Program-made: the position numbers and the translations under genes | The notes under the pieces: generated by a model | The model's input: the letters and a program-made list of their open reading frames with translations, nothing else | What the model was told of the DNA's origin: nothing | Database searches by the model: none | Shown here: piece after piece, positions 1,787 to 49,913 of the stretch | How the letters are laid out: each line of letters opens with the position of its first letter | Position numbering within the stretch: the stretch's first letter is position 1 | Source: Gemmatimonadales bacterium | GTDB lineage: Bacteria; Gemmatimonadota; Gemmatimonadetes; Gemmatimonadales; GWC2-71-9 | Direction: 5' to 3' | Assembly (NCBI GenBank): GCA_033764135.1 | Contig: JANRJE010000012.1 | Span: forward strand, 67,290-131,289 | DNA: 64,000 nucleotides

Positions 1787-1817
1787 CAGCGGCCTGACCC
1801 GGGTATCTTTATTCCCG

Positions 1818-5685: not shown

Positions 5686-5711
5686 CGGTCCATGATAACC
5701 ACTCGGCGCCG

Positions 5712-6935
5712 TCACGCGACAGGGGTACTCGCCGCCCCCCCCAATTCCGGCCCGGGGACCTGCCTGAAGGTCACCCAGGCCATCAGCAGGACTATCGCTC
5801 CCCCGATCACGAAGGGGGCGTGCACCCCGATCCGCTGGTAGGCGACCGTCCCCAGGATCGGAGCCAACACCCGGGCGATCCCGGCAAAGGTCTGTGCCAC
5901 GCCCATGGTGGTGCCGAGTTCGCTGGCGGGGGTGGCGGCCGAGAGCTGCGATGTGGTGGCCGGAAAGAGCAACGCCGTGCCGATCGGCACCAGCGGGATG
6001 ATCGCCACCAGCACCCAAACGGTTGGGGCAATCGGGTAGAGCAGCAGTCCCAGGGCCAGCGAGAGGCATCCCAGCCGCATCGCCCAGACCTCACCTATCC
6101 GGTCGACTACCGGACCGAGCGCGAGCGATCTCACCACCAGGCCGAGCAGACCGAAATAGACGAAGAAGTATCCGATCGTCTTGGCGGTGATCCCGAACTG
6201 TGACTCGAGCCAGATTGCCAGGATGCTGGTGAGGAGCGAAAAGGCGAGCATGCCGACGCCGTAGATCCAGATCAGCCGCTCCGCCGGTCCACCCGGGTGC
6301 CGCAACGCCATCCACGCCCCGTGCCACACCGGCTTGCGCGGTCGCGGAGTGGCGTCAGGGGTCCGTGACTCTGGCAGGTACTTCCAGGCCGCCAGGACGT
6401 TCAGGAGGCAGAGCGCAGCGGCAATGAACCCTGGCGCCTGCCGCCCCAGCATCGTCGCCAGAGAACCGATGGCCGGGCCGATCATGACGCCGGCGGATGT
6501 CGCCGCCGAGAGCCAGCCCAGGGCGCGCGCCCGGTCGGCGGGGGTGACTGTATCGGATACGTAGGCCTGCGCCACTCCGGTCGTCCCCCCCCCTGCTCCC
6601 TGAATGATGCGGGAGAGGAAGAGCAGCCACACGGTATCGGCCAGCCCGAACACCAGAAACGCCATCGCGGAGGCGAGCAGCCCGATCATCAACGCCGGTC
6701 GCCGACCGTACCGGTCGGAGACGCGTCCCCAGAGCGGCGAGGCGATCAGCTGGGCGATGGAGAACGAGGCGATCATCCAGCCGATCGTCTCGGGGGTGGC
6801 CTCTAGTTCGAGGGCGTAGAACGGCAGGATCGGCAGCACGATCGCGAAGCCGAGCATGTCGATGAAGTTCACGGCGATCAGGACGCTGAGGCGCCGCAGG
6901 TTGTCGCGCTGGGTGGAGGTGACCGGACCACTCAC
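5712..6935 (-). CDS. MFS transporter (drug/H+ antiporter-like)
   Basis: A 12-TM hydropathy pattern was seen. The MFS motif 'GRVSDRYGRRP' sits between TM2 and TM3. GTG start at 6935. Confidence 0.85.
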   Translation of the reverse strand: MSGPVTSTQRDNLRRLSVLIAVNFIDMLGFAIVLPILPFYALELEATPETIGWMIASFSIAQLIASPLWGRVSDRYGRRPALMIGLLASAMAFLVFGLADTVWLLFLSRIIQGAGGGTTGVAQAYVSDTVTPADRARALGWLSAATSAGVMIGPAIGSLATMLGRQAPGFIAAALCLLNVLAAWKYLPESRTPDATPRPRKPVWHGAWMALRHPGGPAERLIWIYGVGMLAFSLLTSILAIWLESQFGITAKTIGYFFVYFGLLGLVVRSLALGPVVDRIGEVWAMRLGCLSLALGLLLYPIAPTVWVLVAIIPLVPIGTALLFPATTSQLSAATPASELGTTMGVAQTFAGIARVLAPILGTVAYQRIGVHAPFVIGGAIVLLMAWVTFRQVPGPELGGAASTPVA

Positions 6936-9378: not shown

Positions 9379-9668
9379 TTCTGGTTGGAGGTACGCCGGG
9401 ATTGCCCGGGAGGTTCGCGACCGACGGCAAATGCAAGCACGAACGCAATCAGCGCGGCGAGCAGCAGCGTCTGACCTGCTCCGGAGCCGGTACCATGCAA
9501 AAGGAGGAGCATCCCGATCGAGACGGAAATGGTGCCGAGGCCCCGGAGGACCTCCTCGAGGTTGCGCCACTGGACCTGCCGCCCCCAGTGGATGGCAAAG
9601 GCCAGCCCCACCACGCCGAGGACGAGGATGCCGTACCAGATGAGGATCCACCAGCGCTTGCCTATCAT
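9375..9668 (-). CDS. Small membrane protein (2-3 TM) translationally coupled to the deacetylase gene
   Basis: A 97-aa protein with hydrophobic stretches WWILIWYGILVLGVVGLAFAI and LLLAALIAFVLAFAV. Its stop overlaps the downstream ATG (ATGA). Confidence 0.5.
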   Translation of the reverse strand: MIGKRWWILIWYGILVLGVVGLAFAIHWGRQVQWRNLEEVLRGLGTISVSIGMLLLLHGTGSGAGQTLLLAALIAFVLAFAVGREPPGQSRRTSNQK

Positions 9669-13053: not shown

Positions 13054-14028
13054 TCACGCCACCAAATCCTTCAACTTCTCCCCCGTCTCGCCCTCGCGGA
13101 GCCGGATCAGTGCCCGGTCGCGAAGCTGGCGGATCCGCTCGCGGGTGACCCCCATCATCCGGCCGATCTCCTCGAGGGTGCGCGGCTGGCCGTCGTCGAG
13201 GCCAAAATAGAGGCGTAGCACCTTGGCGTCACGCGGGGGGAGCGAGTCGAGGGCATCCTCGATGTCGGAACTCTGCGAATTGGCCATGGTGTTGGCGTCG
13301 GTGCCCTCCTGCTCTGCCAGGGCGAAGCGCTCCATCCGCTCGTTGCCGTCACCCTCGCGGGTGGGGTGGTCGAGGCGGACCGCCTCGGTGTTGAGCGAGG
13401 AGAGCGAGCGCACCGCCTCTTCGGTCAGCGAGGTGGCCCGGGCGAGTTCGCTGACGGTGGGCATCCGACCCATCCGCTCCTTGAGCAGCGTGGTGGTCTT
13501 GCCCAACCGGGAGAGATCGGCAGTACGGTTCAGCGGGACGCGGACCGGCCGACCATGCCGGGCGATCGCCGCCTGTACCGCCTGACGAATCCACCAGACA
13601 GCGTAGGAGATGAACTTGACGCCCCGATCCGGGTCGAACTTGCGGGCCGCCGTCATCAGGCCGAGGTTGCCCTCCCCGATCAGGTCGACCAGCGGAACGC
13701 CGCGATTCTGGAACTTCTTGGCGACCGAGACGACAAAGCGGACGTTGTGACGCGCCAGCTTCTCCTGGGCGATCACGTCGCCCTGGAACGCCTTCCGGGC
13801 CAGATCCATCTCCTCCTGGCGATTCAACAGCGGGACGCGCGAAATCTCGTCGAGGTAGAGATCGAGACTCTCCCGCCCCTCGTCAACCGCCCGCGCGATT
13901 TGCGCCGGACGCAATGAACGCCGCTTGCCACGCACCTTGCTGGTCACACGCACTCCTCTATTCCTGCGCTCCACGCCCCGGTCCGGACGGCGTCCGGCGG
14001 GGTCGAGGCGAGAATCAAACGAAATCAT
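13054..14028 (-). CDS. RNA polymerase sigma-70 family factor (RpoD/RpoS-like group 1/2, short form)
   Basis: Region 2 ('VSVAKKFQNRGVPLVDLIGEGNLGLMTAARKFDPDRGVKFISYAVWWIRQA'), region 3 and region 4.2 ('TLEEIGRMMGVTRERIRQLRDRALIRLR') were all seen. ATG at 14028 was chosen (~324 aa). The ORF extends to 14181. Confidence 0.85.
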   Translation of the reverse strand: MISFDSRLDPAGRRPDRGVERRNRGVRVTSKVRGKRRSLRPAQIARAVDEGRESLDLYLDEISRVPLLNRQEEMDLARKAFQGDVIAQEKLARHNVRFVVSVAKKFQNRGVPLVDLIGEGNLGLMTAARKFDPDRGVKFISYAVWWIRQAVQAAIARHGRPVRVPLNRTADLSRLGKTTTLLKERMGRMPTVSELARATSLTEEAVRSLSSLNTEAVRLDHPTREGDGNERMERFALAEQEGTDANTMANSQSSDIEDALDSLPPRDAKVLRLYFGLDDGQPRTLEEIGRMMGVTRERIRQLRDRALIRLREGETGEKLKDLVA

Positions 14029-14415
14029 GCAAAAATAACGATCCGGACCGTTTCCCGCAATTCGTGGGTGAACTCTTTGTGAAACATCACCCAACCTTAC
14101 GGCCGATGCCGTGAAACAGTTCCAGCGAGTCGACCCATGCCGGGACCCAATTGATACGCTGGCCCCCTCAAGTACGTTCAACCGGCGCTCTTGGACTCAC
14201 CTCGCCTCACCTTGGGAGACGCTCCCCGGCTCCCGGGAGTGACATTTGAGCCGTTTGGAGGTGGTTGGGGAAGAATTCGGCCGGTCCGGGTGTCACAGGG
14301 GATAGTGGCCGATCCGGCCCCGAGTGTCACCACTGACGGGGTGCCCACCGGCACCTGTTCACCCCTCTGAGGCCGCCAGCCGGACGGCGGCGGCCCCGGG
14401 TCTGGAGGTTCCTTC

Positions 14416-15552
14416 TTGCGGCGCAATACCACCATTCCTGGCATTCGCTACTCCTGGCTCTGGGTCGTCGCCACCTTCCTTCTAGCCCAAACGGCGGCGG
14501 CCCAGCGGCCCGGAGCTGGCAGCAACTGGAAAACCGACTTCACTCGCAGTTCGGTCGATTTGCGGGAAATAACCTCAGGCGGTCCCCCCAAGGACGGCAT
14601 CCCGTCGATTGATCGTCCCAAGTTCATAACGGTCGACGCCGCCTCCTGGTTGGGCGACCGGGAGCCGGTGATGGTGGTCTCCCACGGCGGCGAGACCAAG
14701 ATCTACCCGATCCAGATCCTGATCTGGCACGAGATCGTCAACGACGTGGTCGGTGGCCGACCCACCACGGTCACCTTCTGTCCGCTCTGCAACACGGCAC
14801 TGGTCTTTGATCGCCGCCTGAACGGTCGGGTCCTCGACTTCGGCACCACCGGTCAGCTCAGGCACTCCGATCTGGTGATGTATGACCGCCAGACCGAAAC
14901 CTGGTGGCAGCAGGCGAGCGGTGAGGGGATCGTGGGTGAGCTCACCGGCAAGGAGCTGGTGAGGGTGGACGCCCAGATGGTCGCCTGGGGCGAGGCCCGC
15001 CGCAACTTCCCCACCGCCAAGGTGCTCTCGCGGGAGACCGGTTATCGCCGCGAGTACGGTCGTAACCCCTATGCCCGCTATGACAACCCCGGCCAGAGCC
15101 CGATCGCGGCCTTCTTCTCGCGGAAGCCGGACCCCCGGCTGCCGGCTATGGAGCGGGTGGTCACCCTGGAATCGAAAGAGTCGCCGGTGGCGTACCCCTT
15201 CACCCGGCTAAGCAAGGAGCGGGTGGTCCACGACGACCACGACGGGGTGCCGATCGTGGTTCTCTGGAAGGAAGGAACCGCCAGCGCGCTCGACGCGAGC
15301 AACATCAATCAGGGCCGCGACGTCGGTGCGGTAGGGGTGTTCGAGAGCCGCCTGGACGGCAAGAAGCTCAGCTTCACCGCCACCAACGACGGCCGCTTCC
15401 GCGATGACGCCACCGGCTCGCTCTGGAATCTCTTCGGCGAGGCCGAGGCGGGACCGTCAAAGGGCCGCCGCCTGACCCCGATTCCCCACGGCAACCATTT
15501 CTGGTTCTCGTGGGTGACCTTCCGCCCCTCGACCCGGCTGGCCCAGCGCTGA
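14416..15552 (+). CDS. DUF3179 family secreted protein
   Basis: Signal peptide plus 'ILIWHEIVNDVVGGRPTTVTFCPLCNTALVFDR', which is characteristic of DUF3179. TTG start at 14416. Confidence 0.75.
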   Translation: MRRNTTIPGIRYSWLWVVATFLLAQTAAAQRPGAGSNWKTDFTRSSVDLREITSGGPPKDGIPSIDRPKFITVDAASWLGDREPVMVVSHGGETKIYPIQILIWHEIVNDVVGGRPTTVTFCPLCNTALVFDRRLNGRVLDFGTTGQLRHSDLVMYDRQTETWWQQASGEGIVGELTGKELVRVDAQMVAWGEARRNFPTAKVLSRETGYRREYGRNPYARYDNPGQSPIAAFFSRKPDPRLPAMERVVTLESKESPVAYPFTRLSKERVVHDDHDGVPIVVLWKEGTASALDASNINQGRDVGAVGVFESRLDGKKLSFTATNDGRFRDDATGSLWNLFGEAEAGPSKGRRLTPIPHGNHFWFSWVTFRPSTRLAQR

Positions 15553-15579: not shown

Positions 15580-16977
15580 CTACAGCGCCTTGATCTCCGA
15601 GACCAGCGCGGAGAGCGAGGTCTTGGCATCGCCGAAGAGCATCGCCGTCTTGGGGTCGTAGAAGAGTTCGTTCTCGATCCCCGCGAACCCCGGATTCATC
15701 CCCCGCTTCATGACGATGATGCTGCGCGCCTTGTCGGCGTTGAGGATCGGCATCCCGTAGATCGGCGAGCTGGTGTCATGGCGCGCGGCCGGGTTGACGA
15801 CGTCGTTGGCACCGATGATCAGCGCCACGTCGGCCTGCTCGAAGGCGTCGTTGATTTCGTCCATGTCGTAGAGCCGGTCATACGGCACGTTCGCCTCGGC
15901 CAGCAGGACGTTCATGTGCCCCGGCATCCGGCCGGCCACCGGGTGGATGGCGTACTTGACCTCGCCGCCGTTCTTCTCGATCAGCTCGGCCAGTTCCCGC
16001 ACCACATGCTGCGCCTGCGCCACCGCGAGGCCGTAGCCGGGCACGATGATCACCTGCTGGGCGTAGGCGAGCTGCACGGCGGCATCGTCGGCCTTGACGC
16101 TTCTGACGGTGAGACCGGCACCGCTCTTCCCCCCCCCGGCGCCGCCAGCCGTGGCGGCACCGAAGGCACCGAAGAGAACATTGGCGAGCGAGCGGTTCAT
16201 CGCCTTGCACATGATCCTGGTGAGGATGATGCCGCTGGAGCCGACCAGCGCCCCGGCGATGATCAGCACGTGGTTGTTGATCACGAAGCCGGTCATCGCC
16301 GCCGCCACGCCCGAGTACGAATTGAGCAGCGCGATCACCACCGGCATGTCGGCGCCGCCGATCGGGATCACCAGCAGGATGCCGAGCAGCAGGGCGATCC
16401 CCAGGACGCCGTAGAACGGACCGAGGGCGGCCTCCGGAGTCATCACCTGCCACGCCGCCAAGCCGAGCACGGCGAGTGCCAGCAGCGACGACACCACTTG
16501 CTGGCCGGCATAGGTGATCGGCTTGCCGGTCATCACCTCCTGGAGCTTGGCCCAGGCGATCAGCGAACCGGTGAAGGTGATCGACCCGATGATCAGCGAG
16601 AGCTGGATGGTGATCCCGGTTTCGACCGGCAGCACCACCCCGCCGAGCTCCGACTTGAGCAGCTCGGCGCCGGCAACCAGCACCGAGGCCGCGCCGCCGA
16701 AGCCGTTGAGCAGGGCGACCATCTGGGGCATCGAGGTCATCTCGACCGAGCGCGCCATCCAGAGACCGATGCCGCCGCCGATCACGATGCCGGCGGCGAT
16801 CTCGATCCAGGAGAGCATTCCTCCGGCGAGCAGGGTGACGACGATGGCGAGCAGCATCCCCCAGGCCGAGAGCCGGTTGCCGGAGGCCGCGGTCGCGGGC
16901 GAGCCGAGCCGCTTGAGACCGATGATGAAGCAGGCGGATGCGACGAGGTAGCCGAGTTCGGCGAGTGCGTGCGGCAT
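15580..16977 (-). CDS. pntB: NAD(P) transhydrogenase subunit beta
   Basis: A multi-TM N-terminus, then the dIII NADP-binding domain 'VIIVPGYGLAVAQAQH...KYAIHPVAGRMPGHMNVLLAEA...IGANDVVNPAA'. ATG at 16977 overlaps the pntA-small stop. Confidence 0.95.
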   Translation of the reverse strand: MPHALAELGYLVASACFIIGLKRLGSPATAASGNRLSAWGMLLAIVVTLLAGGMLSWIEIAAGIVIGGGIGLWMARSVEMTSMPQMVALLNGFGGAASVLVAGAELLKSELGGVVLPVETGITIQLSLIIGSITFTGSLIAWAKLQEVMTGKPITYAGQQVVSSLLALAVLGLAAWQVMTPEAALGPFYGVLGIALLLGILLVIPIGGADMPVVIALLNSYSGVAAAMTGFVINNHVLIIAGALVGSSGIILTRIMCKAMNRSLANVLFGAFGAATAGGAGGGKSGAGLTVRSVKADDAAVQLAYAQQVIIVPGYGLAVAQAQHVVRELAELIEKNGGEVKYAIHPVAGRMPGHMNVLLAEANVPYDRLYDMDEINDAFEQADVALIIGANDVVNPAARHDTSSPIYGMPILNADKARSIIVMKRGMNPGFAGIENELFYDPKTAMLFGDAKTSLSALVSEIKAL

Positions 16978-17270
16978 CACTTCCCCCCCCCGTCCTTCTT
17001 GAACATCCGCAGCATCCGGTCGGTGACGGCATAGCCGCCCACCACGTTCATCATCGCGAAGGCGACCGCGCCCACGCCGAAGACGCTGCTGATCCAGCCG
17101 TGACCGCCGCCGGCGATGATCAGGGCGCCCACCACAGTGATCCCGGAGATGGCGTTGGACCCCGACATCAGCGGAGTGTGCAGAGTCGGCGGCACTCGCT
17201 GGATCAGTTCTATGCCGAGAAAGGTCGCGAGCGTGAAGATCGCGACGCCAATGATGATTCCTTCGCTCAT
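16977..17270 (-). CDS. pntAB: NAD(P) transhydrogenase subunit alpha part 2 (small membrane subunit)
   Basis: 'MSEGIIIGVAIFTLATFLGIELIQRVPPTLHTPLMSGSNAISGITVVGALIIAG', about 97 aa. ATG at 17270 overlaps the pntAA stop (ATGA). Confidence 0.9.
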   Translation of the reverse strand: MSEGIIIGVAIFTLATFLGIELIQRVPPTLHTPLMSGSNAISGITVVGALIIAGGGHGWISSVFGVGAVAFAMMNVVGGYAVTDRMLRMFKKDGGGK

Positions 17271-18370
17271 CAGGCCCCCTGGTGGCGCAGCGCGCCGTCG
17301 TGTGCGAGACACATCGCGCCGGTGATTTCGTCTTCGAGGTCGAGGTGCAGCCTGCCGTCCTTGCGCAGATGTTCCACCAGCGTCTGGACGTTGCGGGCGA
17401 ACATCTGCGAAGCGTGCAGCGGCATCGTGCTCGGCAGATTGAGCGGCCCGAGAATGGTGACCGGTCCGTGGACCACCGTCTCGCCGGCCCGGGTGAGTTC
17501 GCAGTTGCCGCCTGTTTCGGCCGAGACGTCGACGATCACCGCGCCGGGCTTCATCGCCTCGACCATCTCGCGGGTGATCAGGCGTGGTGCGGGACGGCCC
17601 GGAATCGCAGCCGTCGAGATCACCAGATCGGACTGCACGATCGCGCCGGAGACCGCCTCGAGCACCTTCTGTTGTTGCTCTTCTGCCAGTTCCCTGGCAT
17701 ACCCGCCCGCGGTCTCGGCGTCACCCGCGACCGCTTCGGGTGCCAGGAACTTGGCACCCAGCGAGAGCACCTGCTCCGCCGCCGCAGCGCGCACGTCGAA
17801 GCCGGTCACCACGCCGCCGAGACGGCGCGCAGTTGCGATTGCCTGCAACCCGGCGACGCCGGCACCGAGCACCAGCACCTTGCCAGGCGTGATCGACCCG
17901 GCAGCGGTGGTGAGCATCGGCAGGAAGCGCGGCATCGCACCTGCGCCGAGCAGCACCGCTTGATAACCCGCGACGGTGGCCTGGGAGGAGAGAATGTCCA
18001 TCGACTGCGCGCGGGTGATCCGGGGCACCCGCTCAAGCGCCAGCACGGTGATCCGGCGGCGAGCCAGCGCTTCGAGCGCGTCACGACTGTCGGGACCGAG
18101 CAGCGCGGCGAGCGCGGCACCTTCGGGCACCCGCGCGGCCTGTGCCGGATCGGGGCGACGCACGCCAAGCACCAGATCGGCCGCATCGAGTTGGGGTACG
18201 ATGGTGGCACCGACGGCGAGATACTCATCGTCGGAGTGGAAGGCAGCGAGACCGGCACCCGCCTCGACGGCGATGCTGTCCCCCCCCTTGATCAGCTTGG
18301 CAGCCGCATCGGGGGTGAGAGCGACGCGTCGTTCGCGTGGAGCGGTTTCCTTCAGGACTCCAATGTGCAT
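17270..18370 (-). CDS. pntAA: NAD(P) transhydrogenase subunit alpha part 1 (alanine dehydrogenase-like dI domain)
   Basis: 'MHIGVLKETAPRERRVALTPDAAAKLIKGG...VLVLGAGVAGLQAIATARRLGGVVTGFDVR' is the dI Rossmann domain. ATG at 18370. Confidence 0.9.
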   Translation of the reverse strand: MHIGVLKETAPRERRVALTPDAAAKLIKGGDSIAVEAGAGLAAFHSDDEYLAVGATIVPQLDAADLVLGVRRPDPAQAARVPEGAALAALLGPDSRDALEALARRRITVLALERVPRITRAQSMDILSSQATVAGYQAVLLGAGAMPRFLPMLTTAAGSITPGKVLVLGAGVAGLQAIATARRLGGVVTGFDVRAAAAEQVLSLGAKFLAPEAVAGDAETAGGYARELAEEQQQKVLEAVSGAIVQSDLVISTAAIPGRPAPRLITREMVEAMKPGAVIVDVSAETGGNCELTRAGETVVHGPVTILGPLNLPSTMPLHASQMFARNVQTLVEHLRKDGRLHLDLEDEITGAMCLAHDGALRHQGA

Positions 18371-21026: not shown

Positions 21027-21803
21027 ATGCCCAGACTTTCTGTGAAGGTTATTGCCGCAGGTGCTGCGATCCTGCTCACCACTACCCCGGCCCGCGCCGA
21101 CGACCCGGAGAGCGGCTTCCCGACCGACTTCGGGCTCGCCACGCCGCTGGTCGCCACGGGGAACAACATGGTGGTCTCCTACTTTGGCTGGGAGGAGACC
21201 ACGGTGTTCGGCCATACGCTGTGGGCATTCACCACCGAGCAGTTGGTGGCCAACCAGAGCTGCTTTGGCTGGTCGGTGACGGGGAGTTGCCTGGCCAACA
21301 ACCAGATCGTGGGAGAGAACATCGCCACCAAGAGCTACGGGGCGCAGGCCAACCCGTTCCTCGGCAGTCCGACCACTTCGAACTTTGCCTGGACAGCGGG
21401 CACCGAAGTGGTGTTCGGGTTGATGGTTCAGCAGGCGATCAACAACCAGGATCTTTCGCAGGGGTTCGGCTACAACTGGTTCTTCTCGGGCGACCCGCTC
21501 CGCAATTCGGCGACCGACGGCTTCGCACATCTGGCATTCTTCGGGACCGGGGGAGTGCCGGGCGACGACGGCGTCGGCATCATCCCGGGTACCGAGGGGA
21601 AGTTCTTCTTCGGCTTCGAGGACGTCGCCTACGAGTTCAGCGACTGGGACTTCGACAACGCGATCTTCCAGGTCGATTTCAACTCGATCAATCCGCCGAC
21701 CGACGTGGTGCCCGAGCCGACTACCATGACGCTGCTGGCCACCGGGCTGATCTCGCTGGCGGCTGCCGGCCGACGGCGCCGGAAGTCGCCACCTCCCGCC
21801 TGA
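21027..21803 (+). CDS. PEP-CTERM sorting-domain secreted protein
   Basis: Signal peptide 'MPRLSVKVIAAGAAILLTTTPARA' with an RBS-like AAGAGGAG upstream. The C-terminus 'VVPEPTTMTLLATGLISLAAAGRRRRK' is a canonical PEP-CTERM motif plus TM helix plus basic tail. Confidence 0.85.
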   Translation: MPRLSVKVIAAGAAILLTTTPARADDPESGFPTDFGLATPLVATGNNMVVSYFGWEETTVFGHTLWAFTTEQLVANQSCFGWSVTGSCLANNQIVGENIATKSYGAQANPFLGSPTTSNFAWTAGTEVVFGLMVQQAINNQDLSQGFGYNWFFSGDPLRNSATDGFAHLAFFGTGGVPGDDGVGIIPGTEGKFFFGFEDVAYEFSDWDFDNAIFQVDFNSINPPTDVVPEPTTMTLLATGLISLAAAGRRRRKSPPPA

Positions 21804-21831
21804 CGCTCAGGCACTCAGGGGGGGGCACGCC

Positions 21832-23340
21832 ATGATCGACGCGCTCCGGACGAGACCGGCCCTCCAGGCTGGTCTCGTCGCACTTCTGGTCGGCGCCTTG
21901 GTGCAGTGGTGGATGCAGCGCGCCGATCTGGTGTTGGCGTTCTGGGATGCCCAGGCGCACCTCGACATCGCCCGGCGGGTATGGGATTCCACCACTCCCG
22001 GCGTCCAGATGCTCGGCACGGTGTGGCTGCCGGTGCCGCACCTGCTCTACCTCCCCTTCACGCTGGTTGATCAATGGTGGTGGAACGGGCTGGCGGGCGG
22101 GCTGGTCGGGCTGGCCGCATTCGGGGCGACGGCAATGGCGGCATTCGCCATCGTTCACCGGCACACCGGCTCAACCAGATGGGGGTGGTTGACCGCCGCC
22201 ATCGTGATCGCCAATCCGAGTCTCGCCTACCTGCAGACCACGGCGATGACCGAGCCGATCCTGCTCGCCTTTCTGACCGGCTCCGTGTGGGTCCTGGACC
22301 GTTGGCTCGGCGATCGCGACCGGAGCGGTCACTTGCTGCTCTCCGGCGTGCTGGCGGCGCTGGCCGTGGGGTCTCGCTACGATGGCTGGTTCTACGCAGC
22401 CATTGCCGCCCTGCTGGTGCTGGCGCACTCCCGCCGGGCTGGTCCGACGCTCCGGTTTGCGGCGCCGGTGGCGGTGATGGTGGGGCTCTGGCTGGCGTAC
22501 AACGCGATCTATTTTGGCGATCCGCTGGAGTTCCAGCGGGGGATCTGGTCGGCCGAGAGTCAGCAGGCGGCCCTGGCCGCCTCCGGGTTGCTGCCGACCA
22601 AGGGCGCCCCGCTCATCTCGCTGGGGTACTACGCCGGGGCGACGGCACTGACGGTCGGGGTGATCCTCGCCCCCCTGGGCCTGCTCGGAGCGGCCCTCGC
22701 CCTGGGCTCACCCGGCCGCTGGGCGCTCCTCCTGCTCTGGACGGCGCTGCCGTTCAACCTGCTGGCGTTGTGGGGCGGACAGAGTGTCATTGCGCTCCCC
22801 TGGACCACCCCCGAGGGGATGCTCAACGTGCGCTACGGGGTCATGCTGATTCCGGCCATCGCCGTCTCGATCGGTCTTGGTGGGGCGATGATCGGACGCT
22901 TCGGACCGCGCTGGCACCGGGGCACGTTCTTCGCGTTGCTGGCCCTGATTGGTGGACAATCCGCATGGATGATCGCCGATGCCCCGGTCAGAGTCGGGGC
23001 GCTGCGAGAGGGGCTGGCGATCCGCGATGGCGATGCGGCCCAGATGAACGCCTCACGCTGGTTGGCAGCCCACTATGATCGGGGGCGCATCCTGGTGGCG
23101 CCGGCGGTCAATCTCTCGCCGCGGAGCCGCATCTCATTGCGGGACCGGATCTATCCGTGGACCTGGGAATTGGGTCCCCGGGCGCTGGCAGCGCCAGCGG
23201 AGACGGTTGACTGGGTGTTGGTCGATCGGCGCGCCGCCACCGACGAGGTGGCCCGGGCGTTGGCGGTCGATCACGATTTCGAGAAGCAGTTCGACCGGGT
23301 GTTCGAAGAACGCGAGTTGGAAATCTGGCGCCGCCGATGA
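21832..23340 (+). CDS. Polytopic membrane protein, GT-C-like (ArnT/PMT-type) putative glycosyltransferase. Paralog of 27182-28561
   Basis: About 11 TM segments followed by a soluble C-terminal domain. It shares the pattern 'D..AHL.IAR.V.D....G...LG..WLPLP.LL.LP' with the downstream paralog. Stop overlaps the next ATG (ATGA). Confidence 0.65.
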   Translation: MIDALRTRPALQAGLVALLVGALVQWWMQRADLVLAFWDAQAHLDIARRVWDSTTPGVQMLGTVWLPVPHLLYLPFTLVDQWWWNGLAGGLVGLAAFGATAMAAFAIVHRHTGSTRWGWLTAAIVIANPSLAYLQTTAMTEPILLAFLTGSVWVLDRWLGDRDRSGHLLLSGVLAALAVGSRYDGWFYAAIAALLVLAHSRRAGPTLRFAAPVAVMVGLWLAYNAIYFGDPLEFQRGIWSAESQQAALAASGLLPTKGAPLISLGYYAGATALTVGVILAPLGLLGAALALGSPGRWALLLLWTALPFNLLALWGGQSVIALPWTTPEGMLNVRYGVMLIPAIAVSIGLGGAMIGRFGPRWHRGTFFALLALIGGQSAWMIADAPVRVGALREGLAIRDGDAAQMNASRWLAAHYDRGRILVAPAVNLSPRSRISLRDRIYPWTWELGPRALAAPAETVDWVLVDRRAATDEVARALAVDHDFEKQFDRVFEERELEIWRRR

Positions 23341-25394
23341 CGCGGCAGACGAGGAGATCGATCGTGACATTCACCACATCTCGCACCCCTGCCGGGATCG
23401 CCCTGCTGTTGTGCATCTCGCTCCTGGCGGGATGCAACACGCCTCCGGCTGCGCCCGAGGTGGCCGGTCCGCCGGCGCCGACCCCGGCAGAGATGGATTC
23501 CCTGTTGGCAGGGTCCGGCGACAGTGCCGCCGCCGCGATGCCTGCCATCACGGCCCGCGTCGACTCGGCCTCCGCTCCGACAGCGCTCACCCTCCGCGAC
23601 ATCGGACTCAAGGACGGCGTGACGCTGTTCGGCGCTACCGTAAATGCGGCGTTGACCATTCCGGTGAACAGCGGCCTCCGTCCGACCCGGTTGGTGCTCG
23701 ACCTCACTCCCACACCATTGATGCCGGGTGCAACGCTCTCGCTGAGTCAGGGCGGCCGCCTCCTCTCGCAGCACTTGCTGACCGACACCACAACGCAGGT
23801 GACTCTCCCGCTCACTGATCTGATTGTCGACGCGGGTCGCGCCACGGTGATGCTGGGGCTCCGCATCGGCGACATCGAGGTCTGTGCCGCCGAGGTGACA
23901 TATCGCACCGCGGTCCAGCCGACCAGCCGGATCGAGTATGCCGGCACCCCGCTTCCCGTTGGCGGCATCAACGATTTCTTCGCCCCCTGGCTCAGCCGGG
24001 TGGTCTTCTACCTGCCGGACGATCCGTCGCTCGATGCCGCGCAGGCGGCGCTCGACGCGGCGGCGTTCGTCAATCGACGCTATCGCGGCATGACGACGCG
24101 CTTCGAGATTCTGCCTCTGCCTCCCGAGGGAACCGCACTGAGCGAACCGGCCGCGGACGAACGCGCCCTGTTCTGGTCACCTTCGGGGCCGACGATGGTG
24201 GTGAGACCGGGGGGGGGACGCGGCACGGTGTTGTCGATCGCCTCTCGTCGTGATGCCCGTCAGCTCTTTGCCCTGGCCGACGGCAGCCAACTCGTGCCGG
24301 TGGGCGGTTTCAGTGCCACCACGGTCCGACCCGAACTGATCGGCCCCGATGCCCGGGGGACACTGTCGTTCGGAGAGATGGGACTCGGGGCGGAGACCGT
24401 CGAGGGCAGCTCGGTCATCGTCGCCAGCTATCCGTTCTCCCTGGCCGACTTCGGTCGACAGGTCACCCCCCGCGCGGTCCGGCTGCTGGTCCACCACAGC
24501 ATGCTGCCGCAGGATGGTCGGGGGACGATGCGGGTGACCCTCAACGGTCAGTTGATCGAGTCGGTGCGACTCGACCGCACCGAGGTCGACCGTACGGTAT
24601 CGCTGCCGGGCCACTTGCTGGCTCGCGAGAACCGTCTCGACGTGCGCTTTCATGTGGTGCTCGGGGAGGGACGCTGTGTGCTCGGCGGACCGACATTCGC
24701 GGCCACCATCGACGATCGCTCGACCTTCGTGCTCACCGGCGAGATGCCGTTGCCACCTTCCTTCGATCGCTTCCCCGCGGCGTTCGTGCCCGCCTTCTCC
24801 GTGCTGATGGAACCGCGGGATCGCTTCCGGGTGGAACTCGCCGCGCGCGCCGTCGGCGCGATGCAGCAGACCACGACGACGGCGCTGGCTCCGTTCGTGG
24901 TCCGCGACCGGGCGGAGGTGCGCGGCTCGCTCTTGGCCATCGGCAACAGCACGCTCGCTACCGAGCTCGATGCCCCGATTGCGGGCGACGGATTCCGGTT
25001 GCGTGACCTGCAGGGCCGGGTCTGGGACGAATACGCCCCGACCGAATCGTTCGCTGCAATGCAGGCCTACTCGGCCGATGGTCGCGACATCCTGCTCCTC
25101 CATCACACCCGCGACGACGGCGCCCCGCTCGATGCCATGCTGCGCGAGTCACTGGCGGCGTACGGCTGGTTCGGAGTGCACGGCGACCTCGCCCTCCGCG
25201 GTCCCGACGGCCCGACCACGGTGATCACCGCTGCCAATTCCGGCTGGATCATCGACCGCACCGTGGCCGATCCGCCCACGATGTGGGAGCGCTGGCGCTC
25301 GGTGATCTTCATTGCGGCGGGACTGACTCTGCTGATCCTGGCCATCTGGCTCTTCCCGCGGGTGGTCCGGCGTGAGCTCGACACGACTGGGTGA
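23337..25394 (+). CDS. Bitopic periplasmic lipoprotein (lipobox LLAGC plus C-terminal TM anchor). Possibly a BcsB-like synthase partner subunit
   Basis: 'MTRQTRRSIVTFTTSRTPAGIALLLCISLLAGC' is a lipoprotein signal. The C-terminus 'WRSVIFIAAGLTLLILAIWLFPRVVRR' is a TM anchor. Its end overlaps the GT2 gene. A BcsB relationship is inferred from topology and context only. Confidence 0.6.
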   Translation: MTRQTRRSIVTFTTSRTPAGIALLLCISLLAGCNTPPAAPEVAGPPAPTPAEMDSLLAGSGDSAAAAMPAITARVDSASAPTALTLRDIGLKDGVTLFGATVNAALTIPVNSGLRPTRLVLDLTPTPLMPGATLSLSQGGRLLSQHLLTDTTTQVTLPLTDLIVDAGRATVMLGLRIGDIEVCAAEVTYRTAVQPTSRIEYAGTPLPVGGINDFFAPWLSRVVFYLPDDPSLDAAQAALDAAAFVNRRYRGMTTRFEILPLPPEGTALSEPAADERALFWSPSGPTMVVRPGGGRGTVLSIASRRDARQLFALADGSQLVPVGGFSATTVRPELIGPDARGTLSFGEMGLGAETVEGSSVIVASYPFSLADFGRQVTPRAVRLLVHHSMLPQDGRGTMRVTLNGQLIESVRLDRTEVDRTVSLPGHLLARENRLDVRFHVVLGEGRCVLGGPTFAATIDDRSTFVLTGEMPLPPSFDRFPAAFVPAFSVLMEPRDRFRVELAARAVGAMQQTTTTALAPFVVRDRAEVRGSLLAIGNSTLATELDAPIAGDGFRLRDLQGRVWDEYAPTESFAAMQAYSADGRDILLLHHTRDDGAPLDAMLRESLAAYGWFGVHGDLALRGPDGPTTVITAANSGWIIDRTVADPPTMWERWRSVIFIAAGLTLLILAIWLFPRVVRRELDTTG

Positions 25395-27204
25395 CCTTCT
25401 GGTTGCCGAGGGGGTAATCACCCCTCAGCAACTGGAGACCGCCCTCACGCAGCAGCAACGGACCGGCGAACGCCTCGGCCGGCTGCTGCTCATCCTGGGG
25501 TTTGTGCGTCGGCTCGACTTGGCGCGCGCCCTCGCAACCCAGTGGGGTCGGCCGTTCGTGACGATCGAGCCCGGCAGCGTGAACGTGGCGGTGGCCCATC
25601 GCTTCCCACTGGAGGCCACCATCGCGCTCCGGGCCGTGCCGCTTAGTGATGATGGCAAAACGGTCGTGGTGGCAACCGCGGAGGAACCGGGCGATGCACT
25701 GCGCGAGGCGCTGTCGGTAGTCTATCCCGGCCGCGCACTGGATCTCCGGATCACCACGGAATGGGACATCGATCGCGGCATCGGATTGGCGCACCGTCGC
25801 AAGGTGGTCGACACCTCGATCTACGGCCTCTATTTCCGCGACCAGTCGGAGAGCGCCTTCACCGTCTTCACCCTGGCCCAGTATCTGGTGCTGGTCGCCT
25901 TGGTGGGCGGGGTGCTCGCGTCGCTCTGGGCCTGGCCGCTGCAGACCCTGCTGTTGCTCAATGTGCCGATCACTCTCTTCTTTCTGGCGGTGGTGGTGTT
26001 CAGGACTGTCGTCGGCGTCTCGGGCGCCGGCGCGGAGACTGCAATCACGGTGGGAGATGAACGGATCCGGTCGATTGACCCACTCGAGTTGCCGATCTAT
26101 ACCATCCTGGTGCCGGTCTACAAGGAACGCCGGGTCATCGGTCGACTGCTCGAATCGCTGGCCGCGCTCGACTACCCGGCTGACAAGCTCGACATCATCA
26201 TCCTCTTCGAGGAGGAGGATCTCGAGACGCTCGCCGCAGCCAAGGCGGCCGCCCCGCAGGCCAATGTCCGCTTCCTGATCGTCCCGGCCGGCGAGCCGCA
26301 GACCAAGCCCAAGGCGTGCAACGTCGGACTGCTGTTCGCACAGGGCGAGTATCTGGTGATCTACGACGCCGAGGATCGTCCCGATCCGGATCAGCTCAAG
26401 AAGGCGCTGCTGGCCTTTCAGCAGGGGCCTGCCGAACTGGCCTGCGTGCAGGCGGCGCTCAACTACTACAACTGGGACGAAAACTTCCTGACCAGGATGT
26501 TCACCCTCGAGTATTCGTTCTGGTTCGACTACCTGCTGCCCGGTCTGGACCGGCTGCGGCTGCCGATTCCGCTGGGCGGCACCAGCAATCACTTCCGCAC
26601 CAGCGTGCTGCAGGAGCTGGGCGGCTGGGACCCGTTCAACGTCACCGAAGACGCCGACCTCGGCATCCGCGCCGCAATGCACGGCTATCGCGTGGGGATC
26701 GTCAACTCCACCACGTACGAGGAGGCCAACACCCATCTCGGCAACTGGATCAGGCAGCGCTCGCGCTGGATCAAGGGTTACATGCAGACGGCGCTGGTCT
26801 TTCTCAGGAATCCGGTCGATCTGGTGCGCCGCGCGGGGATCAGGCAGACCATCGGCTTCACGCTGCTGATTGGCGGCACCCCGCTGGTATTCCTCTTTCA
26901 GCCCGTCGCGGTGGTGCTGACGATCATCTGGCTGCTGACCCGCACCCAACTTTTCGCGCCGCTCTTTCCGCCATGGCTGCTCTACCTGTCGCTGTTCAAC
27001 CTGCTGATCGGCAACGCGCTGGCGATCTACGTCAACATGTTCGCGGTCTTCAAGCGGCGGCTGCACGGGCTGGTGCTCTTCTCGCTGCTGAACCCGCTGT
27101 ACTGGCTGCTGCATTCCATCGCGGCCTACAAGGCACTGGGTCAGCTCTTCACGCGACCGTACTACTGGGAGAAGACCGTCCATGGCCTCACCCGCCATTC
27201 CTGA
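25372..27204 (+). CDS. Processive family-2 glycosyltransferase (cellulose/PNAG-synthase-like, QxxRW) with an N-terminal MshEN/T2SSE_N-type cyclic-di-GMP-binding domain
   Basis: The N-terminus 'RLGDLLVAEGVITPQQLETALTQQQRTGERLGRLLLILGFV' fits the MshEN c-di-GMP-binding motif. The GT2 core has 'ILVPVYKE', 'DAEDRPDPD', 'TEDADLG' and 'QRSRWIKG' (QxxRW). There are about 6 TM helices. GTG start at 25372. Confidence 0.8.
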   Translation: MSSTRLGDLLVAEGVITPQQLETALTQQQRTGERLGRLLLILGFVRRLDLARALATQWGRPFVTIEPGSVNVAVAHRFPLEATIALRAVPLSDDGKTVVVATAEEPGDALREALSVVYPGRALDLRITTEWDIDRGIGLAHRRKVVDTSIYGLYFRDQSESAFTVFTLAQYLVLVALVGGVLASLWAWPLQTLLLLNVPITLFFLAVVVFRTVVGVSGAGAETAITVGDERIRSIDPLELPIYTILVPVYKERRVIGRLLESLAALDYPADKLDIIILFEEEDLETLAAAKAAAPQANVRFLIVPAGEPQTKPKACNVGLLFAQGEYLVIYDAEDRPDPDQLKKALLAFQQGPAELACVQAALNYYNWDENFLTRMFTLEYSFWFDYLLPGLDRLRLPIPLGGTSNHFRTSVLQELGGWDPFNVTEDADLGIRAAMHGYRVGIVNSTTYEEANTHLGNWIRQRSRWIKGYMQTALVFLRNPVDLVRRAGIRQTIGFTLLIGGTPLVFLFQPVAVVLTIIWLLTRTQLFAPLFPPWLLYLSLFNLLIGNALAIYVNMFAVFKRRLHGLVLFSLLNPLYWLLHSIAAYKALGQLFTRPYYWEKTVHGLTRHS

Positions 27205-28561
27205 GCCGCGGGCCGCTCCGTGGGTGCGGGCGACCCTGGCGCTGGCGGTAGCACTGCCGCTCATTCTGGCCGCGCTGCTGCTGGTCGGCGACGGCTGGCT
27301 GAGCGACACCCACGGCGCCTTCCTGCACCGGGTGCGCTTCGCCGTGGATCGCGGTCGCCTGGAACTGCTCGGCTTCGAGTACCCGCCGTTGCCGTTCCTG
27401 CTGCTGACGATCTGGCCGTCGGTCGTGATGCCGCTGGTGCTCGGGGCGCTGGGCCTGGTGGGGCTTGGCTGGCTGATCACCGGCGAATGCACCGACCGTC
27501 GCTCGATGCTGCCGTTGGTGCTTCTGGTGTGTGCCACGTGGACGCCTATCGGCATCCACTTGGTGGCAAGCGACTTCAACGAGACGATCGGCTTGCTGGT
27601 GCTCTTCCTGGCCTGGCGTTATTACCGGCGCTGGTGGTCCACGCGACAGACCGTGTACGGCCTGTACACCGGCATCCTCCTGGGCGTGGCGTTCTACACC
27701 TCGCCGCTGGGGCTGGCGCTGGCGTTGTTTGCCGGAGCCCTGCTGCCGCTGCTCTTTCCGCGGCTCCAGATTCCGCCGTTCTCCTCGCAACTGGTGCTGC
27801 TGGCGTTTCCCGGGATGGCGGCCACCGCCACCTGGGCTTACCTCTCGTGGGTCTTCGTGGGGCGAGTGGCCTTTCCCTTCACGCCCTGGGAACCGCAGTC
27901 CCCGACCATTCTCACCATTCTGAGCTGGACCGTGCCGTACCTGGTGGTCTCCGCGTTGGCGATGCTCCGCCGTGAGGCGCAGACGGCCGGCGTGCTCCTG
28001 CCACTGCTGCTGCTGGCGTTGGCCGACCGGATCGGCTGGCATTTTTCGCTCGCCTATGCGGTGCTGCTGGTGACGCTGGTGGCAATAGTGGCGCTGCCCC
28101 GCGACCTTCATCGGGTGACCCGGATGGCCGTCGGCAGCGTGGCCGTCGGACAGGCGCTGGTGGCGTGGTGGCTGGTACCATGGCCCACTCTGGTGCCGCG
28201 TGATCTGGCTGCGCGCGCCGTGGCCGAGGCGCTGGCGGGTGCCCCCCCCCGGAGCATTCTCATCGATGACCGGTACGCCGAGACACTGCTCAAGTGGTCA
28301 TCATCGATGCGGCCCTATCTCACGACCAGGGACACCGGTTTCGAGGTGGCGCTGGCCCAACCGGGAAGCCAGGTTCGCTACGTCGTCGCCACAGCCGACG
28401 ACGAGGGACTCACGCTCGATGCCGACCGGCGACCACCGCCGGGATTCCTTCTGGAGTGGAGCTGGGCGGGCTACACCTTGTGGCGCCGTCCGGATGCGCC
28501 GCCCCGACCGGTGCGCTTCGATGCGCTTCCCGATCCTTCCGTGCTGGAGAGTTCACCATGA
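27182..28561 (+). CDS. Polytopic membrane protein, GT-C-like. Paralog of 21832-23340
   Basis: ATG at 27182. More than 10 TM segments with a soluble C-terminal region. Paralogous signature to the first membrane protein. Stop overlaps the next gene's ATG (ATGA). Confidence 0.65.
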   Translation: MASPAIPEPRAAPWVRATLALAVALPLILAALLLVGDGWLSDTHGAFLHRVRFAVDRGRLELLGFEYPPLPFLLLTIWPSVVMPLVLGALGLVGLGWLITGECTDRRSMLPLVLLVCATWTPIGIHLVASDFNETIGLLVLFLAWRYYRRWWSTRQTVYGLYTGILLGVAFYTSPLGLALALFAGALLPLLFPRLQIPPFSSQLVLLAFPGMAATATWAYLSWVFVGRVAFPFTPWEPQSPTILTILSWTVPYLVVSALAMLRREAQTAGVLLPLLLLALADRIGWHFSLAYAVLLVTLVAIVALPRDLHRVTRMAVGSVAVGQALVAWWLVPWPTLVPRDLAARAVAEALAGAPPRSILIDDRYAETLLKWSSSMRPYLTTRDTGFEVALAQPGSQVRYVVATADDEGLTLDADRRPPPGFLLEWSWAGYTLWRRPDAPPRPVRFDALPDPSVLESSP

Positions 28562-29379
28562 GGCGTTGGTGTTTCCTGATCACCGTTGCTGCCGGCGCGA
28601 TGCTGGCGTTGCCGTCGCCCGCGAAGGCGCAATGGACCCTGCCCAAAGGTGGCTGGTTCATGTCCCACAGCTTCAATGTCGGCTCCTTTCCCGATCGCTT
28701 CTCGGCAGGGCCGGGTGCCACGGAGAACGAGCTCGACAAGGTCGACTACGGACTCTATTTCCTGTACGGTTGGCGCGAGGGAACCAGCGTCGGACTGGGA
28801 CAGGGATTCTCCCGCCTGGAGCAGACCTTCAACGGCACCACCACCACCAACACCGGCTTCGGTTCGACCGGCTTCTTCATCATGCATCGTCTGGCCCAGG
28901 GGAAGGCCGGCATCCTCTCGATCCAGCCGCGGATCGACCTGCCACTCCTGTTCGACAACGACGAGCGCCCGGCGCTGGGGCCGGTAGAGGCCGACGCCGA
29001 GATCCGCCTGCTGTACGGCAACGGCTTCGGCATCGCGGGGACGCGGGGCTTCATGAACGCGTCGGCGGGCATCAGCACGATCCGCGCTGGCAACGACGAA
29101 ATCCGCTATGACGGCACGGTGGGGATCGACGCTCACCCCCGTTTGCTGTTGATGGGTCAGGCCTTCAACGTGATCGGGCTCGCCGATGGGGGGGGGATCG
29201 CCTACAGCGCCACCAAGCTCGGCGCTTCGGCGGTATTCCGGGCCTCGCCGACGGTCGGACTCCTGATAGGGTATTTTCGGGGCGTCTCGGGGAAGAACAC
29301 CTCACGGGAGCGGACCTTCAGCATCGGGATCTGGCTCTCCCACACCCCGCAATCGCCCGTGGTCCCGCCGCAGCAATAG
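28558..29379 (+). CDS. Outer-membrane beta-barrel (porin-like) protein
   Basis: ATG at 28558 gives the signal peptide 'MRRWCFLITVAAGAMLALPSPAKAQ'. Alternating amphipathic beta-strand pattern with aromatic girdle residues. Last gene of the operon. Confidence 0.65.
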   Translation: MRRWCFLITVAAGAMLALPSPAKAQWTLPKGGWFMSHSFNVGSFPDRFSAGPGATENELDKVDYGLYFLYGWREGTSVGLGQGFSRLEQTFNGTTTTNTGFGSTGFFIMHRLAQGKAGILSIQPRIDLPLLFDNDERPALGPVEADAEIRLLYGNGFGIAGTRGFMNASAGISTIRAGNDEIRYDGTVGIDAHPRLLLMGQAFNVIGLADGGGIAYSATKLGASAVFRASPTVGLLIGYFRGVSGKNTSRERTFSIGIWLSHTPQSPVVPPQQ

Positions 29380-40004: not shown

Positions 40005-40263
40005 TTGGTGGATGTTGGATGTTGGATTTTGGATGTTGGATTGGATGTTGGCTGCTCTAGGTGGTACGCCCCTCGTCCCGACCGGAGGGCCTGCGCTGAG
40101 CGGACGCGAAGCGAGGGACCTCGGCAGCCGCCCCCGCTCCGACCGGCCAACCTCCGATATCCAACCTCCAACATCCAACATCCAATATCCAACCTCCAAC
40201 CTCCAACCTCCAACCTCCAACATCCAAAATCCACCATCCACCTCCGCCATTATCTTCCCCCCC
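40005..40263. repeat. Large composite element: (GGATGTTG)-type tandem arm, the core CCCTCGTCCCGACCGGAGGGCC and a GC hairpin, then a (CAACCTC/CAACATC/CAATATC) x~12 tandem arm
   Basis: Read directly. The heptamer run 'ccaacctccgatatccaacctccaacatccaacatccaatatccaacctccaacctccaacctccaacctccaacatccaaaatcc' lies downstream. The core motif is shared with 43714 and 63861. Confidence 0.9.
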
Positions 40264-41940
<1,677 letters not shown>

Positions 41941-49905: not shown

Positions 49906-49913
49906 TCCACGGC

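Follow-up and report, generated by a model that had tools for sequence, protein, structure and literature searches.

Which product do six adjacent genes of a Gemmatimonadales bacterium make, and what switches them on? The genes, called P1 to P6 from 5' to 3', are all co-directional and fill positions 21027 to 29379 on the plus strand of the DNA that we analyzed, a stretch of 64,000 nucleotides (nt) of contig JANRJE010000012.1 (assembly GCA_033764135.1), hereafter called the window. Synthase-dependent exopolysaccharide systems hold a central place in biofilm biology; they comprise those of cellulose, poly-N-acetylglucosamine (PNAG), alginate, and Pel, recently joined by Nfr. The original prediction, made from the letters of the window, had described the locus as a synthesis and export machine of this kind whose composition differs from that of known systems. 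We consider it likely that the locus encodes a synthase-dependent exopolysaccharide machine of the Xag type, switched on post-translationally by cyclic di-GMP (c-di-GMP). The xagABCD exopolysaccharide and biofilm operon of Xanthomonas is reportedly described by Tao et al. in 2010.

The predicted six-gene anatomy was borne out by the open reading frames (ORFs), by their order, and by the GC content at third codon positions of the six ORFs (0.78 to 0.85), as expected for coding sequence at the GC of this window (67%, with a range of 64 to 70%). From P1/P2 to P5/P6, the junctions measure +28, -4 (ATGA), -23, -23, and -4 (ATGA) nt, so that the last five genes are indeed linked by overlaps of 4 or 23 nt, as had been claimed. 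The 23-nt overlap between the genes for the BcsB-like protein and the family 2 glycosyltransferase (GT2), seen here at P3/P4, is also present in two relatives, L005 and L006. Together with L007, these are the three other Gemmatimonadales genomes in which we found the full six-gene order, still beside thrBC and with GT2 proteins 66 to 79% identical to P4; the locus had been predicted to be a single operon, and this synteny shows it to be one conserved unit. Judged from their overlaps and shared order, P2 to P6 are one translationally coupled unit. An accidental gene neighborhood was ruled out by synteny.

The synthase P4 and its BcsB-like partner

P4 is composed of an MshEN domain (residues 1 to ~140), two transmembrane (TM) helices, a GT-A domain (residues ~240 to 470), and additional C-terminal TM helices. 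The MshEN matches span residues 5 to 137, N-terminal to the GT2 domain, and pass the cut-offs of both NF053729, an MshE-related c-di-GMP motif (65.3 bits, cut-off 38), and Pfam MshEN (28.5 bits, cut-off 23.1), while three GT2 models matched at about 1e-26. The N terminus reads RLGDLLVAEG...Q and RLGRLLLILG...Q, and both stretches are exact matches to the 24-residue MshEN pattern [RKPN]hGxxhhxx[GAS]hhxxxxhxxxhxx[QNKRYWST] (Wang et al. 2016; PMC5013675). Since the domain aligns without gaps to Vibrio cholerae MshE (VcMshE; 5htl; E = 6e-15), R5 of P4 corresponds to R9 of VcMshE, and Q28 to Q32. By these matches, the P4 N terminus is predicted to be a complete MshEN c-di-GMP receptor, with both motifs intact.

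The catalytic residues DAED, TED, and QRSRW are invariant in a cross-phylum alignment (A3; positions in Table 1). When the cross-phylum profile of the P4 family was compared to PDB, the top matches overall were MshEN-containing pilus ATPases, and the best matches of the glycosyltransferase domain were BcsA of Escherichia coli and Rhodobacter (E about 5e-16, residues 225 to 543), covering the GT domain plus the helices that follow it. GtrB, DPMS, ArnC, or any other polyprenyl-phosphate glycosyltransferase was not among the PDB matches of this profile at E ≤ 0.01. Motifs and profile matches thus identify P4 as a cellulose-synthase-like processive GT2. This confirms the synthase that had been proposed, an MshEN-bearing processive enzyme with a QxxRW motif: the MshEN domain scores above its cut-offs, and the GT2 domain resembles BcsA rather than a non-processive, DPM-like enzyme.

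Close homologs of P4 carry the JGI name "glycosyltransferase XagB". In good agreement with this, P4 is 43 to 44% identical to XagB of two Xanthomonas reference loci (L068, from Xanthomonas cucurbitae, and L073) over residues 6 to 610, MshEN included.

The gene upstream of P4 had been predicted to encode a BcsB-like lipoprotein with a C-terminal TM anchor, and all elements of this description were found again. P3 matches Pfam BcsB (35.2 bits, cut-off 21, residues 82 to 539), and a profile of 14 P3-family members found E. coli BcsB chains as its only PDB match (E = 1.5e-9). The protein carries an LLAGC lipobox as well as a C-terminal TM helix at residues 655 to 673, and it is 36% identical to its Truepera ortholog over 607 residues. 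Homology and topology make P3 an inner-membrane-anchored homolog of BcsB. As a separate observation, C183 and C447 of P3 are invariant in an alignment of 14 BcsB-like proteins from nine phyla (A7), which suggests a conserved periplasmic disulfide in this family.

Could the locus be a cellulose synthase, that is, a Bcs variant with MshEN for PilZ and a small barrel for BcsC, making beta-1,4-glucan? Among solved homologs of the P4 glycosyltransferase domain, BcsA is the closest, the partner P3 is a BcsB homolog, and a glycoside hydrolase family 5 (GH5) "Cellulase" gene adjoins the related Truepera core, GH5 being found twice in our census of neighbors (see below). However, P4 scored 62.5 bits against the cut-off of 699.1 of the CelA equivalog TIGR03030 and 43.3 against the 992 of PRK11498, falling short by a factor of about ten, and neither PilZ nor BcsC, BcsZ (GH8), BcsG, or BcsE is among the six proteins. 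Moreover, Bcs has no GT-C partner, and in iron oxidizers with both systems, bcsABCZ forms a set of its own (PMC4643136). Finally, XagD is a GH113 protein, and the xag-dependent biofilm is dispersed by mannanase (PMC8042644). We consider a cellulose synthase improbable and retain the Xag-type machine.

Table 1. Coordinates of the locus and its motifs in the window, with the genes of the Xanthomonas reference locus L068
Feature	Position	Strand	Length	Description
P1	21027..21803	+	258 aa	secreted PEP-CTERM protein, DUF4114-like domain
P2	21832..23340	+	502 aa	polytopic GT-C-like membrane protein, C-terminal soluble domain, "P2-type" subfamily
P3	23337..25394	+	685 aa	BcsB-like lipoprotein, C-terminal TM anchor
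P4	25372..27204	+	610 aa	MshEN-GT2 synthase, XagB family
P5	27182..28561	+	459 aa	predicted GT-C-fold membrane protein, C-terminal soluble domain, XagC homolog
P6	28558..29379	+	273 aa	signal-peptide protein, predicted 12-stranded outer-membrane beta-barrel, XagA homolog
Two 24-residue c-di-GMP-binding motifs of MshEN (P4)	25384..25542	+		residues 5-28 and 34-57, 5-residue spacer
Processive GT2 catalytic signatures (P4)	26365..26769	+		DAED 332-335, TED 425-427, QRSRW 462-466; motif scan
XagA	L068, Xanthomonas cucurbitae, gene 1		340 aa	no Pfam match; P6-like
XagB	L068:7935-9842, gene 2		635 aa	MshEN (Pfam 45.3 bits) + GT2
XagC	L068, gene 3		452 aa	no Pfam match
XagD	L068, gene 4		322 aa	GH113, 111 bits

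Partners of the synthase across phyla

Scanning one genome per species with the GT2 alignment gave at least 600 matches, of which 598 were confirmed, and the synthase family is found in at least 598 species and more than 10 phyla. The best 80 of the at least 600 loci belong to Gemmatimonadota, Chloroflexota, Actinomycetota, Bacteroidota, Firmicutes, Cyanobacteria, Aquificota, Synergistota, Acidobacteriota, Nitrospinota, Ignavibacteria, and Alpha- and Gammaproteobacteria. In nearly all of these 80, the match starts within the first ten residues, indicating that the N-terminal MshEN is a family trait.

We counted neighbors by iterative searches over every ORF of 86 loci. The most constant partner was a GT-C-like gene, which adjoins the GT2 gene in 73 of the 86, followed by a BcsB-like gene (next to GT2 in 50) and a P6-like gene (in 21). 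The latter was found in diderm lineages only, and in none of the loci from Actinomycetota, Chloroflexota, and Firmicutes. Most loci have a single GT-C-like gene, of either the "P5 type" (~390 to 460 residues) or the "P2 type" (~500 to 560 residues), and two such genes occur only in the Gemmatimonadales loci and in one Chloroflexia locus, L046. In L046 (9737 to 12963), two P2-type genes stand in tandem 3' of GT2 and are followed by a BcsB-like gene. A core of BcsB-like, GT2, and XagC-like genes was recovered in Truepera, Acidihalobacter, and Anaerolineae. The neighbors of P4 are therefore not unrelated housekeeping genes, since they co-occur with the GT2 gene across phyla.

P2 matches the GT-C family PMT of Pfam (28.1 bits, cut-off 22.7) over ~100 residues only (100 to 198). 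It is 54 to 65% identical to the syntenic genes of L005 and L006 and, over its full length, 32 to 34% identical to the gene directly 5' of GT2 in Arthrobacter, Rathayibacter, and Subtercola. BLASTP found no relation between P2 and P5 (best E = 1.5). When the two families were compared by hhalign, however, they aligned over their entire length, C-terminal soluble domain included (95.5%, E = 1.5e-8, 418 columns), and independent jackhmmer searches converged, all 77 ORFs from the P2 search being within the 81 from the P5 search. By these comparisons, P2 and P5 are remote paralogs, related only at the profile level. P5 had been called a second GT-C-like paralog; its GT-C type holds by predicted fold and the paralogy by profile, but the two proteins are not recognizable as paralogs by BLASTP. 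The P5 family also aligned with a profile of nine proteobacterial XagC sequences, including Xanthomonas (hhalign 99.1%, E = 6e-19, 399 columns), whereas the match of the P5-family profile to a single Xanthomonas XagC sequence was not significant (3%, E = 0.014).

Since PDB sequence searches with P5 (phmmer) and with the P2-family profile returned no solved homolog, the fold of both proteins had to be predicted. In the predicted models, P2 and P5 are GT-C-fold proteins, and the structural matches of this fold include pseudo-enzymes such as PIG-U. In P2, D39 in the first external loop and the neighboring loop residues are invariant in an alignment of the P2 subfamily that reaches from Gemmatimonadales to Actinomycetota (A4). 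In P5, D42 and E61 are kept in most relatives but not in all. Across the whole GT-C-like family, only G62, P66, P120, P208, and D360, the last one in the C-terminal domain, reach at least 70% conservation, and catalysis by P5 is uncertain because the loop acid is not strictly conserved across this family.

The same exopolysaccharide machine could thus have non-catalytic GT-C-fold proteins, which would be structural subunits of the synthase that hold the chain or bridge to the barrel, much as PIG-U/GAB1 is a structural subunit of the glycosylphosphatidylinositol (GPI) transamidase. The lack of a strictly invariant acid common to the first external loop of the whole family would fit such a role, as would the fact that the locus encodes no lipid-sugar donor pathway and the very fast divergence of the GT-C-like family (33% identity between phyla versus 57 to 59% for GT2). 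On the other hand, the invariance of D39 and its surroundings within the P2 subfamily speaks for catalysis, and that Gemmatimonadales have retained both paralogs suggests a distinct activity for each. Most sequences have a D or E near the start of the loop, but the segment is so short that the chance expectation is high, which makes this feature uninformative on catalysis. We regard scaffolds without catalytic activity as possible, though less likely than not.

The pairing of GT2 and GT-C proteins is a hallmark of Gtr, Arn, and YfhO-type systems and could point to lipid-carrier glycosylation instead of polymer synthesis. In the manner of GtrB, ArnC, and CsbB, the GT2 would then load a single sugar onto polyprenyl phosphate, and the two GT-C enzymes would pass the sugar to lipopolysaccharide, peptidoglycan-linked polymers, or the PEP-CTERM protein. 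This would be in agreement with the constancy of the GT-C-like neighbor and with the match of P2 to the protein-O-mannosyltransferase family. However, P4 has the TED and QxxRW signatures and several C-terminal TM helices, and its family matches BcsA and no polyprenyl-phosphate glycosyltransferase. Furthermore, the BcsB homolog P3 is translationally coupled to P4, GH113 and GH5 polysaccharide hydrolases recur as neighbors, and a GtrA-type flippase is absent from the locus. Because of the processive signatures, the BcsB partner, and the hydrolase neighbors, we hold lipid-carrier glycosylation to be very improbable compared to an exopolysaccharide machine.

The last gene of the locus had been predicted to encode an outer-membrane beta-barrel. 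P6 is indeed predicted to be a signal-peptide protein that forms a 12-stranded barrel in the outer membrane. It resembles XagA in tblastn (23% identity, E = 4e-7), in hhalign (90.9%, E = 1.1e-6), and in jackhmmer after iteration (E = 3e-78). In Acidihalobacter, the 386-residue gene 3' of xagC showed no similarity to P6, and the P6-like gene is another ORF on the opposite strand.

Mechanism, product, and surroundings of the locus

The components of the proposed synthesis and export machine were all recovered by homology or structure prediction: a c-di-GMP-sensing processive-type GT2 in the inner membrane, a BcsB-like periplasmic partner, and a predicted outer-membrane barrel. In NfrB, binding of c-di-GMP to MshEN activates the synthase (PMC8669469). 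By analogy with NfrB and with the PilZ domain of BcsA, c-di-GMP binding to MshEN would release the P4 synthase. P4 would then polymerize a common nucleotide sugar and thread the chain through its own TM channel, and P3 would receive the chain and guide it in the periplasm, both steps by analogy with BcsA-BcsB. The GT-C proteins would act on the periplasmic face, either as enzymes that use a polyprenyl-phosphate sugar donor to decorate the nascent chain or to branch it, or as a scaffold without catalytic activity. P6 would let the chain pass the outer membrane, a role suggested by the restriction of P6-like genes to diderm lineages.

Several observations weigh against this scheme. Scans for sigma-70 promoters and intrinsic terminators gave nothing above shuffled controls and are uninformative, and the 64-kb window contains neither a GGDEF nor an EAL gene. 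The locus is devoid of a sugar-nucleotide pathway gene and of a hydrolase, and it has neither a GtrA-like flippase nor a polyprenyl-phosphate sugar synthase that would supply the GT-C proteins with a donor. The loop acid described above (D39 in P2, where the first external loop starts) is not strictly conserved family-wide. The closest structural relatives of the P6 barrel import small molecules or export unfolded protein, and with its 12 strands, P6 is narrower than the 16- to 18-stranded exporters of Bcs, Pga, and alginate.

For the product, we turned to the genes around related synthases. A Pfam census of 125 flanking ORFs returned histidine kinases (9), GGDEF (4), EAL (2), GH113 (3), and GH5 (2), but no recurrent sugar-nucleotide pathway. 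GH113 is a beta-mannanase family. In the window, none of the six proteins and none of the flanking genes gave a glycoside hydrolase match. The GH113 and GH5 genes of related loci, together with the dispersal of the xag-dependent Xanthomonas biofilm by a beta-1,4-mannanase, suggest by analogy that the product is a beta-1,4-linked glycan, mannan- or glucan-like.

P1 had been described as a PEP-CTERM exported protein, and it passed the cut-offs of both Pfam PEP-CTERM (25.6 bits, cut-off 20.7) and TIGR02595 (23.2 bits, cut-off 16), while its DUF4114 score remained just below threshold (23.1 bits, cut-off 27). Its C terminus, VPEPTTMTLLATGLISLAAAGRRRRK, consists of the PEP motif, a TM helix, and a basic cluster (VPEP-TM-RRRRK). 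Orthologs with 40 to 50% identity occupy the same position in L005 to L007 only, and iterative searches of the 86 loci found P1 homologs in none but the Gemmatimonadales loci. The label of "substrate" that P1 had been given is not supported; the gene is confined to these loci, and no exosortase is encoded in the 64-kb window. P1 probably serves, in this lineage only, as a protein of the matrix or the surface that is co-expressed with the polymer. Within the 28-nt spacer between P1 and P2, a run of eight G (21818 to 21825) sits 6 nt 5' of the P2 start; this run, which may represent either a tract prone to slippage or a Shine-Dalgarno-like element, is not conserved 5' of the P2 orthologs in L005 to L007.

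The locus is preceded by a GHMP kinase gene and a pyridoxal-phosphate (PLP) enzyme gene (thrB/thrC-like), with 237 nt between thrC and P1, and an ABC-F ATPase gene follows 30 nt past P6. Since housekeeping genes flank it on both sides, the locus is a discrete insert. The nearest protein matches to the window proteins carry Gemmatimonadales names. The ABC-F gene next to P6 (29410 to 31311, plus strand) is one of two in the window, the other lying less than 10 kb away (40012 to 41940, plus strand), both with tandem ABC_tran plus ABC_tran_Xtn; in L006, the place directly 3' of the P6 ortholog is taken by a 221-residue gene with a faint TPR match (14024 to 14689) that has no counterpart in the window. 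Further along the plus strand (44580 to 53821), there is a five-gene alpha-glucan (glycogen) cluster unrelated to the exopolysaccharide locus, comprising genes for DUF3417/phosphorylase, a GT5 glycogen synthase, a GH57 branching enzyme with BE_C, a GH57 plus DUF3536 protein, and a GH57 4-alpha-glucanotransferase-like protein. Large Ser/Thr protein kinase genes lie at both ends of the window (1599 to 3563, plus strand, and 60563 to 63718, minus strand), the second with C-terminal TPR repeats. An 888-residue ORF on the minus strand (6985 to 9651) has PIG-L, the de-N-acetylase family of N-acetylglucosaminyl-phosphatidylinositol (GlcNAc-PI), as its sole Pfam match (residues 147 to 281).

Relation to Xag and other known systems

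The raised biofilm of Xanthomonas rpfG mutants requires xagA and xagB, and the operon is repressed by diffusible signal factor (DSF)/RpfG signaling (PMC3609779). A 2019 review describes the xag product as a biofilm polysaccharide of unknown nature, with the biofilm being dispersed by the beta-1,4-mannanase ManA (PMC8042644). Roelofs et al. 2015 listed xagABC among the c-di-GMP-regulated operons without a known receptor (PMC4624772). That same paper discovered c-di-GMP binding by the N-terminal domain of MshE, yet XagB carries this MshEN domain. Fusions of MshEN and glycosyltransferases were noted in general terms by Wang et al. 2016 (PMC5013675). Related clusters, bcsB-xagB-xagC-xagD in Ferriphaselus and sfz1-sfz4 in Zetaproteobacteria, are candidate stalk genes of iron oxidizers, and the respective papers took the domain at the GT2's N terminus for a secretion-ATPase fragment (T2SSE_N type) and sought RxxxR/RxxD motifs in it (PMC4643136, PMC8250860). 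In the open-access literature, we found no assignment of XagC to the GT-C fold or of XagA to a 12-stranded barrel.

The c-di-GMP site in the MshEN domain of XagB would link c-di-GMP directly, at the post-translational level, to the synthesis of the Xag polysaccharide, whose family has a genetic tie to Xanthomonas biofilms and a proposed role in the stalks of iron oxidizers. The partner that accompanies the synthase most constantly is not BcsB but a protein with a predicted GT-C fold; the family spans monoderm and diderm phyla, and the diderm-specific component is the predicted 12-stranded barrel. We put forward only tentatively that Xag-type loci represent a distinct, widespread, and unrecognized class with MshEN gating, an obligatory catalytic GT-C partner, and, in diderms, a 12-stranded exit, and that the polymer of Gemmatimonadales is doubly modified. 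If this holds, the N-terminal MshEN would be the receptor listed as missing for xagABC (Roelofs et al. 2015; PMC4624772). The GT-C partner would then be catalytic on the nascent periplasmic chain, a feature of no other synthase-dependent system, and the two diverged GT-C paralogs would give Gemmatimonadales a doubly modified polymer. The wider value of the analysis would lie in the family-level comparison of MshEN receptor, predicted GT-C partner and 12-stranded barrel, and broad distribution. XagC-like and XagA-like genes annotated as "hypothetical" can now be labeled by predicted fold, and biochemistry can be directed to concrete proteins and residues.

The locus had been presented as unlike the known systems. 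Its distance from the classical ones stands, as there is no Pfam match to PilZ, TPR, or a deacetylase across the six proteins, and the equivalog scores lie far below their cut-offs. The implied novelty, however, is not supported, because the locus has homologs of XagB, XagC, and XagA and matches both the Xanthomonas Xag operon and the bcsB-xagBCD/sfz clusters, and because MshEN-glycosyltransferase fusions were already known (PMC5013675, PMC8669469).

Among the classical systems, Bcs provides the closest solved homolog of the P4 glycosyltransferase domain, BcsA, and the homolog of P3. Activation by c-di-GMP, which for P4 we infer from the intact MshEN site, would be common to both, but the receptor is a C-terminal PilZ domain in Bcs and an N-terminal MshEN domain in P4. 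The window has no BcsC (TPR plus 16-stranded barrel), BcsZ (GH8), BcsG, BcsE, or BcsQ, and the GT-C partners that it does have are absent from Bcs. PgaABCD is more distant, with P4 far below the cut-off of the PgaC equivalog (TIGR03937, 51.6 bits, cut-off 422.3) and no deacetylase match in the six proteins. NfrB-NfrA-YbcH, which makes the N4 phage receptor glycan of E. coli, likewise combines a processive GT2-MshEN fusion, an outer-membrane protein, and a membrane-anchored periplasmic protein (PMC8669469, PMC8669472). However, GT2 is N-terminal and MshEN C-terminal in NfrB, the reverse of P4, and P4 matches the NfrB equivalog NF008411 through MshEN only (47.5 bits, cut-off 1170). NfrA combines TPRs with a large barrel, in contrast to the predicted 12-stranded barrel P6 and a locus without a TPR protein, and Nfr lacks the BcsB-like and GT-C proteins that are both present in the window.

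The closest likeness is to Xag itself. In Xanthomonas, xagB and xagC follow each other with overlapping ends, in the same order as P4 and P5, but the barrel gene comes first there and last here. The Xanthomonas operon has no adjacent BcsB-like gene and carries the hydrolase gene xagD as its fourth gene, whereas the window lacks a hydrolase and has additional genes for a BcsB-like protein, another GT-C paralog, and a PEP-CTERM protein. In L068, a BcsB-like ORF (16861 to 17809), truncated where the locus ends, lies ~7 kb 3' of xagB, so that Xanthomonas may have a BcsB-like protein nearby, outside xagABCD; a separate GT2 gene of 400 residues stands just 5' of xagA (5568 to 6770). The clusters of the iron oxidizers, by their published descriptions, encode a BcsB-like protein with a signal peptide and a C-terminal TM helix, a GT2 with a T2SSE_N-type N terminus, and a membrane protein, which is the order P3-P4-P5, but their fourth gene encodes a glycoside hydrolase instead of an outer-membrane barrel such as P6. 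Overall, homology and gene order identify the locus as a Gemmatimonadales variant of the Xag/Sfz family. Its distinguishing marks are that it has a PEP-CTERM gene and an additional GT-C paralog, that the barrel gene stands last, and that a hydrolase gene is missing.

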